A stretch of 64,000 nucleotides of DNA from Candidatus Aldehydirespirator sp. (GTDB taxonomy: Bacteria > Actinomycetota > Acidimicrobiia > Acidimicrobiales > Aldehydirespiratoraceae): contig OZ241894.1 in assembly GCA_965203575.1 (NCBI GenBank), positions 3,724,322-3,788,321 of the forward strand. Direction: 5' to 3'. The notes below the pieces were generated by a model. That model made no database searches. It had not been told where the DNA came from and saw nothing but the letters and a program-made list of their open reading frames with translations. This document shows positions 22,445 through 47,387 of this stretch, piece by piece. Position 1 is the stretch's first letter. Every line of letters begins with the position of its first letter. The translations under genes and the position numbers were made by a program.

Positions 22445-22469
22445 GTTCCATTGAGCGGAACGGGGTTCC
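22445..22469. promoter_or_regulatory. operator-like motif, site D: GTTCC-attgagc-GGAAC-ggg-GTTCC
   Basis: Read directly. It ends 29 nt upstream of the ATG at 22498. It has the same architecture as the sites at 24488, 37139, 43837 and 47363. Confidence 0.55.
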
Positions 22470-22497
22470 GCCACAGTTCGGGATTGGAGGGGCACTC

Positions 22498-23244
22498 ATG
22501 CCTGACGTCGTCGGCTACCGGGCCAAGATCGGGGTCATCGTGCCGTCGACCAACACCGTCGTAGAGCACGACTTCGCCCGGGTGCGTCCCCCCGGAGTCA
22601 CCTTCCACAGCGGGCGCTTCCTGGTCGAGGCGCCCGACCTGAGCAGCGACGAGGCGTTCCTTTACTTCCTGGACCTGATCCGCCAGACCATCCCGCACGC
22701 GGTGCGCGACATCATGACCTGCAAGCCCGACCACATCCTCATGGGGATGTCGGCCGAGACCTTCTGGGGCGGCAAGGAGGGCAACGCCGCCTTCTCGGCC
22801 CGGGTGCGCGACATCGCCGGCGACATCGGCATCACCTCGGGGGCGGCCGCCTGCAACGCCGCCCTGGAGTTGCTCGGGGCGTCGCGGATCGCCTGCCTCA
22901 CGCCGTACCAGCCGGCCGCCGACGAGCAGGTCTACGGGTACTTCACCGAATGCGGCTACGACGTGAAGCGGGTGCGGGGCCTGCGCTGCGACTCGGCCAC
23001 GTCCATCGCCGACGTGACCCCCGAGACCCTGGTGGAGGTACTCAAGGAGATCGACGGCGACGACATCGACGCCATCGTGCAGTGCGGCACCAACCTGTCG
23101 ATGGTCGAGGTGGCCGACCAGGCCGAGCGCTGGCTGGGCAAGCCGGTGCTGGCCATCAACGCGATCTGCCTGTGGCACGCGCTGCGCACCCTGGGGATCT
23201 CCGACCAGTTCGTGGGCCACGGGATGATGCTGCGAGAGCACTGA
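22498..23244 (+). CDS. Asp/Glu/hydantoin-racemase superfamily protein, maleate cis-trans isomerase/arylmalonate decarboxylase-like
   Basis: 248 aa. IGVIVPSTNTVVEHDF, two candidate catalytic Cys (IMTCKPD and IVQCGTNLS), and a GGAGG RBS. Confidence 0.7.
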   Translation: MPDVVGYRAKIGVIVPSTNTVVEHDFARVRPPGVTFHSGRFLVEAPDLSSDEAFLYFLDLIRQTIPHAVRDIMTCKPDHILMGMSAETFWGGKEGNAAFSARVRDIAGDIGITSGAAACNAALELLGASRIACLTPYQPAADEQVYGYFTECGYDVKRVRGLRCDSATSIADVTPETLVEVLKEIDGDDIDAIVQCGTNLSMVEVADQAERWLGKPVLAINAICLWHALRTLGISDQFVGHGMMLREH

Positions 23245-23280
23245 CCGGTTGCAGCCGGCAGAGGTCCGGGCGCTGAGCGG

Positions 23281-44880: not shown

Positions 44881-46503
44881 CTACCTGCGAGGCCTCTGGG
44901 CAGCCGGCCGGGACAGCACGGCGGCGGCGGCCAGGGACCGGCCGCCGACCAGGTCGGTGTCCCTGGACACTTCCCGGTGGGCGGCCCGGCCGGGATGCAG
45001 GGCGCCCACCAGCAGCCCGTCGCCCGGGGCGGCCCGCACGCACTCCGGCGTGTTGATGGTGCCGTCGAAGGGGCTCGAGCGGCGGGGGTTCCACAGCGAG
45101 TCGGCCGGGGGGTCGAGCAGCATGGTGGCCGCCGGCGGCCCCGGCGGCGCGCAGGCGGCCAGGCTGACCCGGTTCTCGGCGGCCCGTTCCACCAACCCCA
45201 GATCGCACTCCCAGCGGTGCTCAGGCTGCCAGCACACCGCCACCAGGCTGGCGCCGGCCACCGCGGCCAGCCGGATGGTCTCGGGATGGCGGTGGTCGTC
45301 GCCCACGATCACGGCCATGTCGCCGAACGGTGTCCGGTAGAGGCTGATCCCCTCCCCCAGCCGGGTGACGTCCGGATAACGGTCGTAGCGGTGGATCTGG
45401 GCCTGCTCGTGGACCAGCCCCCCGGCGGTCCACACCTGGCCCACGTGCTGTCCGTCGCGCTCGGCGGTGGTGACCACCAGTACCCCGGCGGGGATGCCGG
45501 CCGGTGCCGGGGTCAGCTCGGGCAGCACCACCAGCGAGGCCCCCGCATCGAAGGCCTTCCCGATCAGCTCAGGATCATGCTGCGCCCCGGGGACGCACGC
45601 GGCCCGCACTTCAGAGACCTCCGTCGCTGCCGGAGTGGCCGTGCCGCTCGCGGCCAGCGGGCTGTACACCCGGGGCCTGCGACCCTCCAGCCGCCTAGGC
45701 CGGCCCCGAGACAGGTCGACGTCGGCCACCACCACCGCCTCGCCCGCCGGCGGGGCCTTGACCACTACCGTGCCGTCGGGGTCGACGATCTGGCTCTCTC
45801 CCGCGCCCTCGAGGGCCTCGGCGGGAACGCCGAGCGCCTCGGCGAACTCCGCGGCCCGCCCGGCCGGAAGCAGCGAGCCGACCTTGTTGGCCGCCGCCAC
45901 CCACACCCCGTTCTCGGCGGCCCGCACCGGAACGTGCAGGCTGGCCTCGTCGCGGGCGAAGGAGTTGAGGCTGTTGCACAGCAGCCGGGCGCCGCTCACC
46001 GCCAGGGCGCGGGGCGTCTCGAAGGTCACGCCGTCCATGCACGCGTACAGCCCGACCGGCCCGAACGCGGTGCCGGCCACCGCGCTGGGCCTCTCCCCCG
46101 CGCTCAGATAGGCCCGCTCGTTGCCCATGAGCATCTGCTTGTCGGCGGTTGCGGTGATCCGGCCGTCGGGGCCGATCAGCACGCTGGTGACGGTCACCCG
46201 GCCACCGGCGCGGGGCACGGTCACCGCCAGGGCCGCGTACATGCGGTGGTGGGCGGCCCGCCGGGCCAGCGTGCCCAGCCAGTCGCCGTCCAGTGGCACG
46301 GCCACCGCCCGGCAATGCTCCGCGCTGTCGTACACCGACAGGTGGTTGCAGAACTCCGGCAGCACGACCAGTTCGGCGCCGCCGGCCGCAGCCTCATCGA
46401 GCATCCGCACGCACGCGGCCAGATTGGCGTCGACATCGGTCCCCGCCTCGAACTGCGCAGCGGCCACCCGCAAGTGGTCCCGCACCCCGTCGGTGTCAGG
46501 CAA
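44881..46503 (-). CDS. tandem carbon-nitrogen hydrolase (nitrilase superfamily) protein
   Basis: 540 aa. LRVAAAQFEAG...LVVLPEF...GLYACMDG is the first CN-hydrolase domain, and a second, more degenerate one follows (ASLVVLPEL...). The TTG start overlaps the iclR stop; a GTG 6 codons downstream is an alternative start. Confidence 0.7.
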   Translation of the reverse strand: MPDTDGVRDHLRVAAAQFEAGTDVDANLAACVRMLDEAAAGGAELVVLPEFCNHLSVYDSAEHCRAVAVPLDGDWLGTLARRAAHHRMYAALAVTVPRAGGRVTVTSVLIGPDGRITATADKQMLMGNERAYLSAGERPSAVAGTAFGPVGLYACMDGVTFETPRALAVSGARLLCNSLNSFARDEASLHVPVRAAENGVWVAAANKVGSLLPAGRAAEFAEALGVPAEALEGAGESQIVDPDGTVVVKAPPAGEAVVVADVDLSRGRPRRLEGRRPRVYSPLAASGTATPAATEVSEVRAACVPGAQHDPELIGKAFDAGASLVVLPELTPAPAGIPAGVLVVTTAERDGQHVGQVWTAGGLVHEQAQIHRYDRYPDVTRLGEGISLYRTPFGDMAVIVGDDHRHPETIRLAAVAGASLVAVCWQPEHRWECDLGLVERAAENRVSLAACAPPGPPAATMLLDPPADSLWNPRRSSPFDGTINTPECVRAAPGDGLLVGALHPGRAAHREVSRDTDLVGGRSLAAAAVLSRPAAQRPRR

Positions 46504-47311
46504 GGGGCTGGGCGCCGAGCTTGGCCGAGAGCGCCCGGGTGGCCTCCACCACGGCGGCGGAGGCGGGGCCGATCTTGCTGCGGAACCGGTAGATCGGCCC
46601 GCACACGCTGACGACGGCCACCGGCTCGCCGTTGTGGTCGAGGATCGGGGCGGCCACCGACCCGGCGTCGTGCTGCCGCTCGCCGAAGGACAGCGCGAAC
46701 CCTTGGGCGCGGATGCCCTCCAGTTCGGCTCGCAGCTCGTCGACCGAGACGACGGTGGCGTCGGTCAGGGCGTCCAGCGGGTTGTCGGCCAGGTAGCGGT
46801 CGATGGCGGCGTCGGTGAGCCAGGCCAGGAACGCCTTGGACGACGCTCCGGCGTGCAGCGGGAACGACCCCCCGATGGGCACGGTCATCTTCACCTCGCG
46901 CGGCGGGGTGATCTGGTCGACGTACACCCGGCGGTCGCCGTAGCGGACCGACAGGGTGGCGGTCTCGTCGGTCTCGGCGCTGAGTCGCCGCATCTCGTCG
47001 ATGGCCAGGGTCCGCACATCGAGCTGGTCGCGGAAGGCGGCGGCCAGCTCCATCACCGCGGGCCCGAGCCCGTACCGGCGGCTGCGGGGATCGGCGATCA
47101 GCAGGCTGCGCTCGCACAGCGACGCCAGGATCCGGTGCACCACCGCCTTGGACACGCCGAGCTCCCGCGAGATCTCGGTCACTCCCAGCGTGCCCGTCGC
47201 CCGCGAGAACAGGAACAGCACCTCGACCGCCCTGTCGATGGCGGCCACGCTGCGGCCCGAGCCGGAAGCCTGGTCCGGTTCTGCCGACGGTTCGCTCACG
47301 GGAGTGTCCAT
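46496..47311 (-). CDS. IclR-family transcriptional regulator
   Basis: Only the C-terminal 271 aa of track ORF 46496-48478 look coding (start MDTPVSEP). SVAAIDRAVEVLFLFSRATGTLGVTEISRELGVSKAVVHRILASL is followed by an IclR effector domain. Confidence 0.85.
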   Translation of the reverse strand: MDTPVSEPSAEPDQASGSGRSVAAIDRAVEVLFLFSRATGTLGVTEISRELGVSKAVVHRILASLCERSLLIADPRSRRYGLGPAVMELAAAFRDQLDVRTLAIDEMRRLSAETDETATLSVRYGDRRVYVDQITPPREVKMTVPIGGSFPLHAGASSKAFLAWLTDAAIDRYLADNPLDALTDATVVSVDELRAELEGIRAQGFALSFGERQHDAGSVAAPILDHNGEPVAVVSVCGPIYRFRSKIGPASAAVVEATRALSAKLGAQPLA

Positions 47312-47362
47312 ATCGCCCGACTGGTTGCCATCAAGGGTTTCGATGAGGAACACTAGCCCCGT

Positions 47363-47387
47363 GTTCCTTTGGGAGAAACAGCGTTCC
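47363..47387. promoter_or_regulatory. operator-like motif, site C: GTTCC-tttggga-GAAAC-agc-GTTCC, preceded by inverted repeat AGGAACAC-N7-GTGTTCCT (47346-47368)
   Basis: Read directly. It sits in the 78-bp divergent region between iclR (-) and the CoA-transferase operon, and ends 3 nt before the ATG at 47390. Confidence 0.6.

Follow-up and report, generated by a model that had tools for sequence, protein, structure and literature searches.

A five-copy three-box motif and a putative IclR-type regulon in an uncultured Acidimicrobiales genome

A stretch of 64,000 nucleotides from a 'Candidatus Aldehydirespirator' sp. genome (contig OZ241894.1, positions 3,724,322 to 3,788,321; hereafter the window) carries repeated copies of a 25-bp motif among catabolic and transport genes and a gene for a regulator of the IclR family. 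This raises the question of whether the copies are operators of that regulator and, if so, which genes lie under them, in which direction they are regulated and which pathway they encode. The five copies are very probably operators of the IclR protein encoded at 46496-47311, which would most likely act as a ligand-released repressor of its own gene and of about 30 further genes. Binding by this protein, its oligomeric state, the direction of regulation and the effector are inferred from sequence comparison.

The motif and its conservation

The motif GTTCC-N7-GRAAC-N3-GTTYC (exact search pattern GTTCCNNNNNNNGRAACNNNGTTYC) was found in five exact copies in the window, all on the + strand. The copies, predicted three-box operators, are named D, A, E, B and C from left to right and are given with their scores in a position weight matrix (PWM):

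22445-22469 (+): site D, GTTCCattgagcGGAACgggGTTCC; exact match, 32.6 bits
24488-24512 (+): site A, GTTCCgttgaccGGAACactGTTTC; exact match, 32.6 bits, conserved in loci L045-L073
37139-37163 (+): site E, GTTCCgctgagaGGAACgcgGTTTC; exact match, 40.9 bits
43837-43861 (+): site B, GTTCCgtcgacaGGAACagcGTTTC; exact match, 43.9 bits
47363-47387 (+): site C, GTTCCtttgggaGAAACagcGTTCC; exact match, 39.3 bits

These coordinates and sequences are those quoted in an earlier, sequence-only reading of the DNA, which had also estimated that far fewer than one copy would be expected by chance in 64 kb. Both statements were borne out: 100 dinucleotide-preserving shuffles of the window contained a mean of 0.00 copies, and the analytical expectation at the 69 % G+C of the window was ~2.5e-4 copies per window. 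When two mismatches were tolerated, the sole gain in the window was an overlapping reverse reading of site E. A PWM scan, using a matrix trained on 62 unique orthologous sites (consensus GGAACAnnGTTTCG), returned the five sites at 32.6-43.9 bits and everything else in the window at less than 10 bits. Weaker candidates in the window, namely one-mismatch palindromes at 6805 and 35278 and half-motif matches at 16422, 58088 and 61484 (one-mismatch half searches), occurred at chance level and were rejected.

Three boxes of alternating direction with a shared middle box can be read directly in each copy. Each operator would comprise three 5-bp boxes, of which the first and second form a 17-bp inverted repeat (GTTCC-N7-GGAAC) and the second and third a 13-bp one (GRAAC-N3-GTTYC). 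The likeness among the window copies is confined to 25-29 bp and the flanks are unrelated. Sites B and C have in common an extended 28-mer (GTGTTCC-N7-GRAACAGCGTTYCG), as had been noted and as direct reading shows, and TAGYGTTCC has only three occurrences in the window, each at an operator site (D, B and C). The spacer between the first two boxes had been described as semi-conserved; this conservation is real, but it is not uniform and varies by site class, with TTGACC at site A because the spacer there doubles as a -35 hexamer.

Phylogenetic footprinting, likewise proposed by the earlier reading, found all five positions conserved. To cover sites C, B and E, loci encoding IclR relatives were collected with one genome per species, giving 43 loci with 10 kb on each side, among them 40 orthologues at 66-99 % identity. 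The exact pattern was present in 40 of 43 loci and, in 39 syntenic loci, solely at positions orthologous to C, B and E. When as many as three mismatches were tolerated, site C was exact in 38 of 39 loci and had one mismatch in the remaining one, site B was exact in all 38 loci holding the region, and site E was exact in 22 loci and one mismatch away in another five; where site E is missing, the region probably lies beyond the fetched DNA. In the intergenic alignments the motif columns were invariant or nearly so, while most flanking columns were 30-60 % identical. A PWM scan of the 1.46 Mb of fetched DNA yielded a distinct high-scoring population. Within loci L001-L040 (~0.8 Mb of the total), all matches of at least 12 bits were the three orthologous sites or their reverse readings, except in L039; in a control of twenty window shuffles (2.6 Mb, both strands) there were three matches at this threshold.

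Locus L039 belongs to a Micromonosporaceae metagenome-assembled genome (MAG) whose IclR protein is 54 % identical and has the same recognition helix. It holds one exact site (GTTCCatgaaacGAAACaatGTTTC) at 4528-4552 (+), ~1.2 kb upstream of iclR in intergenic DNA that is not syntenic, and given this locus the operator type may extend beyond the Acidimicrobiia. An additional E-like palindrome without a third box (GTTCCGCTCAGGGGAAT) was seen in a single clade (L021, L023, L024, L026 and L028; ~9978-10014, - strand of the locus), 12-23 nt before the start of the iclR match, and may be a second operator in the iclR leader.

For sites D and A, metagenomes were scanned with the isomerase protein encoded after site D, which returned 80 contigs. 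Where the isomerase was 78-95 % identical, a D-type site with 0-1 mismatches was located 28-75 nt before its start and an A-type site ~2 kb downstream. Box 1 of the D site has decayed in one marine group, in which GGAAC-AGC-GTTCC and a preceding TAGTCT persist. Contigs with an isomerase of at most 65 % identity, mostly from soil, contained neither the motif nor an IclR orthologue, and the isomerase gene directly followed another gene; the exception was L122, with one exact site near the contig end.

Linkage to the regulator was found in rearranged loci as well. In L060 and L067 the IclR protein is 62 % identical and a C-type site lies 55 nt upstream, with the CN-hydrolase gene and iclR divergent from the site; downstream of it follow the gene for a 253-aa protein of unknown function, CoA-transferase 2, the isochorismatase-family amidase, the isomerase and the monooxygenase. 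Genes separated by 25-30 kb in the window thus adjoin the regulator in these loci, which provides independent support for one functional unit. The sites travel with their operons and with iclR when gene order is rearranged.

A small number of A-type sites were built differently. The site in L055 (7641-7673) is a symmetric four-box variant, GAAAC-gct-GTTTC-gttgacc-GGAAC-agc-GTTTC, made of two 13-bp palindromes with centres 20 bp apart, and in L070 (8582-8606, -) and L072 (6543-6567, -) the third box is on the opposite side. A fourth box is also partly present in B sites of the Poriferisocius group. The four-box and flipped variants retain the three-box unit and could be useful material on the box requirements of the regulator.

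The candidate regulator, its promoters and the direction of control

The protein considered as the binder is encoded between sites B and C:

46496-47311 (-): iclR, 271 aa; HTH_IclR PF09339 (E 3.8e-12) and IclR_C PF01614 (E 2.3e-40)

It aligns over its full length to the solved IclR-family structures 2o0y, 5tjj and 1mkm. Its NCBIfam scores were below all curated cut-offs (BhcR 166 against 350 bits, pcaR_pcaU (TIGR02431) 123 against 285, KdgR 110 against 275, IclR 104 against 380 and AllR 91 against 406), and the protein is therefore filed as an IclR-family member of no named subfamily. It is 99 % identical to the protein of a 'Candidatus Aldehydirespirator' MAG, and its close relatives are all from Acidimicrobiales MAGs (e.g. 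Ca. Poriferisocius), a group that is sponge-associated according to the literature. The recognition helix, SKAVVHRIL, is nearly invariant in aligned orthologues, including those at 54 % and 62 % identity, with a different helix (SKAAIHRIL) in one aligned orthologue, L029. This parallels the invariance of the boxes and points to the 46496-47311 protein as the likely binder. An overlap of 8 nt between iclR and the start of the CN-hydrolase gene (44881-46503, -) makes it probable that the two form one operon. No regulator other than IclR was recognized in Pfam scans of ~65 open reading frames (ORFs) across the window.

Genes were called from codon-position G+C and frame plots, and families were assigned with Pfam and NCBIfam. 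The five sites front eight transcription units:

22498-24519 (+): D operon; maleate-isomerase/arylmalonate-decarboxylase-family protein and FAD monooxygenase (Pfam, PDB sequence matches)
24632-33491 (+): A operon; 274-aa neocarzinostatin-like/Pro-rich protein, acyl-CoA-dehydrogenase-family flavoprotein, 99-aa ORF, binding protein and two fused ABC transporter proteins (Pfam)
35349-37118 (-): E leftward operon; 317-aa protein without known family, and SDR (Pfam, coding signal)
37196-40060 (+): E rightward operon; 151-aa unknown, DUF3891, 308-aa and 224-aa unknowns (frame plot, Pfam)
40067-43808 (-): B leftward operon; RCC-reductase-like protein, Rieske/VanA_C oxygenase, 239-aa and 313-aa unknowns (Pfam; start codon and Shine-Dalgarno sequence taken from the alignment)
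43936-44754 (+): B rightward gene; HpcH/CitE-like acyl-CoA lyase (Pfam; RipC/CitE-like in NCBIfam, below cut-off)
44881-47311 (-): C leftward operon; iclR and 540-aa CN-hydrolase (Pfam)
47390-56004 (+): C rightward operon; CoA-transferase, cyclase, MmgE/PrpD, hydantoinase-like amidohydrolase, 253-aa unknown, second CoA-transferase, isochorismatase-family amidase and solute-binding protein (Pfam, frame plot)

The sequence-only reading had proposed a regulon of 25 kb. The idea of one unit stands, but the extent was too small: because the + strand operon after site C reaches ~56 kb, the regulated block runs from 22.4 to ~56 kb (~33 kb). The PWM scan detected no internal operator within 47390-56004, and the genes of this interval, sharing one strand and tightly spaced, would form a single operon.

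Promoter geometry was judged from TAnnnT and TTGACx hexamers conserved in the alignments, which is itself an interpretative step. The elements assigned were as follows:

22441-22446 (+): -10-like hexamer TAGCGT overlapping box 1 of site D; kept in metagenome D-type sites
24494-24522 (+): promoter of the 24632-33491 operon; -35 TTGACC at 24494-24499, 17-nt spacer, -10 TAGTCT at 24517-24522
37161-37188 (+): rightward promoter at E; -35 TTCACA (weak) overlapping box 3, -10 TACCAT (promoter scan)
43871-43900 (-): leftward promoter of the 43808-40067 operon; -35 TTGACG at 43900-43895, -10 TACTGT/CATACT at 43878-43871 (promoter scan)
47347-47355 (-): TAGTGTTCC, with TAGTGT as -10 hexamer candidate of the iclR promoter; read along the iclR strand, it follows the operator by 7-8 nt

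All five sites overlap or abut such conserved promoter-like elements, at distances of 2-120 nt from the operon starts. The earlier count of four sites in promoter regions is corrected to five, because site A, within the last 32 nt of the monooxygenase ORF, overlaps the conserved TTGACC-17-TAGTCT promoter of the operon starting at 24632. At this site the -35 lies inside the palindrome spacer, boxes 2 and 3 fill the 17-nt promoter spacer and the -10 begins 4 nt past the operator. Every A-type site has TTGACC or TTGAAC followed, after 17 nt, by TAGTCT, TAGTGT, TAGAGT, TAGCCT or TACTCT. An Escherichia coli-style scan misses this promoter because TAGTCT matches TATAAT at only three of six positions. 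Site D is 28 nt 5' of the ATG at 22498, and the D-type sites of the metagenome loci have TAGYGT, TAACGT or TAGGCT just 5' of, or overlapping, box 1. TAGCGT at site D is a putative promoter element on this evidence, and the operator would then span about -8 to +17.

The other three sites serve divergent genes, as had been proposed. Site E is flanked on the left by the 36165-37118(-)/SDR operon and on the right by the 37196-40060(+) operon, and 19 nt past the operator there is a cTAnnnT followed by ATG or GTG in 21 of 21 aligned orthologues; as the ATG at 37196 comes only 7 nt after the -10, the rightward transcript is probably leaderless. Site B separates the RCC-reductase-like/Rieske operon (-) from the CitE-like gene (+). 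GTCAAC and ACAGTA are among the best-conserved non-motif columns there (leftward TTGACR-16/18-TACTGT), so that the RCCR-like/Rieske transcript would carry the operator at about +4 to +28, in its 5' untranslated region (UTR). Site C is 51 nt from the iclR ATG (47311, -) and ends 2 nt before the ATG of the CoA-transferase operon at 47390. The earlier reading had called its position typical of IclR autoregulation; relatives also have a site 50-55 nt upstream of iclR. GGAACACTA is nearly invariant in 36 aligned orthologous regions, with a distance to the operator that varies by 1 nt; TAGTGTTCC is the probable -10 of the iclR promoter, although it could instead be an extra half-site.

A further element of the iclR leader is GGTTGCC at 47323-47329 (+), almost invariant in 36 aligned iclR upstream regions, ~18 nt left of GGAACACTA with the iclR start following after 11-20 nt. 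Over the window as a whole it is no more frequent than chance predicts, and a second copy occurs 48 nt upstream of site D (22391).

In the proposed mechanism the three boxes together would accommodate an IclR oligomer, which is most likely a dimer of dimers. The ligand-free bound protein would block RNA polymerase at eight promoters or operon starts, so that iclR itself and ~30 genes for catabolism and transport in the 22.4-56 kb interval would be repressed, and some intermediate of the pathway would release it. The identification of the sites as IclR operators, already proposed in the sequence-only reading, is supported by the fit to the known consensus, by conservation at five positions and by linkage to iclR.

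The chief competitor keeps the same operator and binder and takes the regulator to be mainly an activator, or dual, whose inducer-bound form would recruit RNA polymerase and which would repress only its own gene. This was given a real but minority chance. Several points weigh against repression throughout. PcaU and PobR, the classic three-box regulators, are activators (PMC8222616), and so is BhcR, the closest and best-scoring curated family, which probably represses only itself (PMC11323563). The operator at E lies at about -56 to -32 of the rightward transcript, overlapping or upstream of the weak -35 TTCACA in a class-II-like position; that at B is ~75 nt upstream of the ATG of the CitE-like gene, with a possible CTGACA-N17-18-CAGYGT promoter downstream of B in the alignment. 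Activation at these two rightward units would also be allowed by the positions, and dual roles are on record for IclR-family proteins, BhcR among them (PMC11323563). In addition, the E. coli-style promoter scan gave nothing at D, A or C, and no promoter could be confidently identified for the CoA-transferase gene at C or the leftward gene at E. The remaining arrangements are against activation: at A a near-consensus -35 and the entire spacer fall under the operator, which at D covers the -10/+1 region, at C ends 2 nt before a start codon and at B lies inside the leftward 5' UTR, positions from which a bound protein could not activate, and the strong conserved -35 and -10 elements at A and B (leftward) suggest activator-independent promoters. 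At A in particular, an operator that covers the -35 and the spacer means that the promoter must be occluded by bound protein. A repressor with autoregulation is favoured because four or five of the operator arrangements fit only repression.

It is improbable that the operator is real but recognized by some other transcription factor whose gene lies outside the window, another IclR paralogue or a protein of another helix-turn-helix family, with iclR as one of its targets. The consensuses of IclR operator groups 1 and 2 are common to many paralogues, and 64 kb of the genome were covered; against this, in every locus examined the site stays 50-55 nt upstream of this IclR orthologue down to 62 % identity, also where gene order has changed, the recognition helix shares the conservation of the boxes, no second regulator was detected in the window and isomerase homologues without a nearby IclR lack the motif. 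Scarcely credible is a motif that is not a protein operator at all but a leader hairpin, an alternative-sigma promoter element or a dispersed repeat (repetitive extragenic palindrome or miniature inverted-repeat transposable element). GTTCC-N7-GGAAC can form a 5-6-bp stem, and a scan flagged B as terminator-like; GGAAC is the usual -35 core of extracytoplasmic function (ECF) promoters; and all five copies are on one strand. A hairpin or terminator in 5' leaders was rejected since the stem boxes do not vary and ~100 orthologous sites show no compensatory changes. Invariance without covariation indicates base-specific protein contacts; box 1 and the -35 of site A, being upstream of the transcript start, are not transcribed, and the flag at B is the palindrome itself. 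An ECF promoter was rejected because no conserved CGTT follows GGAAC after 16-18 nt and the register relative to the TAnnnT and -35 hexamers differs at every promoter, and a mobile repeat because the likeness stops at 25-29 bp, with unrelated flanks, and the copies occupy orthologous, not mobile, positions. B, E and C each serve divergent genes, the third box is on the other side in L070 and L072, and L055 has four boxes, which also speaks against any such element. Repression by the 46496-47311 protein is the reading preferred here.

Gene content and surroundings of the regulated block

Sequence comparisons of the enzymes give some indication of the pathway. The isomerase-family protein is closest to maleate isomerases, and the isochorismatase-family protein to N-carbamoylsarcosine amidase and the maleamate amidase NicF (3uao). 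The lyase is similar to RipC/CitE, and the CoA-transferase to succinyl-CoA:mesaconate or succinate-glutarate transferases, with every score under its cut-off. SxtT/SxtDIOX and NdmA are the closest solved relatives of the Rieske/VanA_C oxygenase. The gene directly upstream of the oxygenase gene (the pair at 41823-43808, -) encodes a protein that matches RCC_reductase PF06405 (E 5e-14, above the gathering score), with no PDB sequence match. Together with a hydantoinase-like enzyme, MmgE/PrpD, a CN-hydrolase and the Rieske oxygenase, the likenesses of the amidase, isomerase, lyase and CoA-transferase suggest that the regulon degrades a cyclic amide or imide containing nitrogen as far as C4/C5 dicarboxylates.

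The Rieske/RCCR-like gene pair recalls the PAO/RCCR pairing of chlorophyll breakdown in plants, here in an actinobacterium. A 'tetrapyrrole cluster' had been named on first reading; as this label derives from the single RCC_reductase Pfam match it is unproven, and it is treated as a lead rather than a finding. A more specific proposal, speculative and rated unlikely, is that the ~30 genes encode an undescribed inducible pathway for a nitrogen heterocycle, either a cyclic imide or of pyrrole type and perhaps a maleimide that derives from the tetrapyrroles of chlorophyll or bilin debris in the sponge, leading via substituted maleamate, maleate and fumarate-type acids to acyl-CoA cleavage, with the Rieske/RCCR-like pair as a bacterial counterpart of PAO/RCCR. 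The genes behind it are those for the Rieske and RCC-reductase-like proteins, the hydantoinase/imidase-like amidohydrolase, the isochorismatase-family amidase, the maleate-isomerase-family protein, two family-III CoA-transferases, MmgE/PrpD and the CitE-like lyase.

The ABC importer of the A operon is of the branched-chain type, and the gene order of this operon is repeated in L045, L049 and L054. Its first gene (24632-25456, +) encodes a weak neocarzinostatin/enediyne-chromoprotein-like N-terminal domain (below cut-offs) with a Pro-rich tail, an odd partner for an ABC importer. Seven regulon ORFs look strongly coding by third-position G+C but belong to no family in Pfam or NCBIfam:

36165-37118 (-), 37196-37651 (+), 38463-39389 (+), 39386-40060 (+), 40067-41008 (-), 41057-41776 (-) and 52313-53074 (+): family-less ORFs (coding signal)

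The labels 'hydrolase' and 'beta-barrel' previously attached to the first two found no support in Pfam or NCBIfam. The last, the 253-aa ORF, is kept beside CoA-transferase 2 in marine contigs. Between the ABC transporter and SDR genes, ~1.8 kb (33500-35349) have a weak, shifting coding signal and no Pfam match, and may be decayed or foreign DNA inside the regulon.

Outside the block, codon bias is weaker to the left of site D than within the regulon. That left-hand region includes a 1243-aa protein (11089-14820, -) and a 173-aa protein (21196-21717, -) with prokaryotic phospholipase-A2-like segments, the latter match scoring 21.1 bits, below the Pfam cut-off; an IS3-type transposase (rve; 16766-17686, -) lies between them. 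Just past the right end, 56059-61635 encodes a DUF4143/AAA_14 ATPase, an N6/N4 DNA methylase and a C5 cytosine methylase, and is probably a restriction-modification or mobile region.

The outcome is a predicted regulon map for an uncultured sponge-associated member of the Acidimicrobiales, in which eight units, one regulator and one 25-bp operator would delimit, among many unannotated genes, those of one catabolic pathway. As this pathway is rich in family-less proteins, the operator and regulator offer a possible handle on its inducer and substrate.

Comparison with known IclR operators

A literature search on IclR operators with GGAAC returned nothing relevant. The motif is instead best compared with the survey of Suvorova & Gelfand (2021; PMC8222616), in which group-1 sites have the consensus GKTYCRYW3-4RYGRAMC, with the subgroup GTTYCRYW3RYGRAAC commonest in Actinobacteria, and group-2 sites the consensus TGRAACA-N1-2-TGTTYCA. 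Boxes 1 and 2 fit the group-1 subgroup GTT-11-AAC, with GTTYC-N7-GRAAC in five of five window sites and in ~100 orthologous sites; the inner RY-W3-RY positions are matched only in part (AT-TGA-GC at D, TT-TGG-GA at C). Boxes 2 and 3 fit group 2, with GRAAC-N3-GTTYC in all five window sites, an A after GRAAC in three of five and in the PWM consensus, and a T before GTTYC only at A. The motif would therefore be a three-box IclR-family operator that combines group 1 with group 2. The sequence-only reading had likened the half-sites to KdgR-type boxes; there is such a likeness, but the three-box class, with its PcaU/PobR/HmgR-like layout, is a better fit than KdgR alone.

Three-box sites were predicted in the survey for 32 orthologous groups (199 transcription factors), with alternating box direction and one pair of boxes in group 1 and the other in group 2; tandem sites with centres 18-22 nt apart were found to be consistent with tetramer binding (PMC8222616). 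The present motif has the same layout and was likewise found by phylogenetic footprinting, with sites in the regulator's own upstream region and before adjacent catabolic and transport operons. It differs in that the survey supplements contain no Acidimicrobiia genome or matching regulog, and in that the spacer at A is fixed as a -35 element. The locus is thus a natural example of the predicted layout, and its one- to four-box variants bear on the alternative dimerization modes that have been proposed.

A third box is present in the sites of PcaU and PobR (Acinetobacter baylyi) and HmgR (Pseudomonas putida), and experiments showed that PcaU requires it for binding (PMC8222616). These systems share with the present one an inverted repeat with an external third half-site, located between a divergent regulator gene and a catabolic operon, and an autoregulated regulator. 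Their boxes are of the GTNCG type in 10-bp repeats and they activate aromatic-acid pathways, whereas the positions here favour repression.

BhcR of Paracoccus denitrificans is also of the IclR type and divergent from its target operon; its palindrome lies in the intergenic DNA between the two, and a dual role that includes autorepression has been proposed for it (PMC11323563). It differs as an alphaproteobacterial activator of a single operon with glyoxylate as effector, and the present protein scores 166 against its 350-bit cut-off.

GenR of Corynebacterium glutamicum, an actinobacterial IclR protein, binds ATTCC-N7(5)-GGAAT, an xTTCC-N7-GGAAx palindrome with spacing identical to that of boxes 1 and 2 (PMC8222616, Table 1). 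Its sites are of the form WTT-11-AAW rather than GTT-11-AAC and no third box has been reported for them. The GenR regulon serves gentisate and 3-hydroxybenzoate, while gentisate dioxygenase is absent from the regulon described here. As in the present locus, several GenR sites are spread across one catabolic cluster, and the protein is said to have both activating and repressing roles there.

The kind of gene switch proposed for this locus is already known, and general concepts of bacterial regulation are unchanged by it. What is new is the gene content of the regulon, which is that of none of the described regulogs (PMC8222616).

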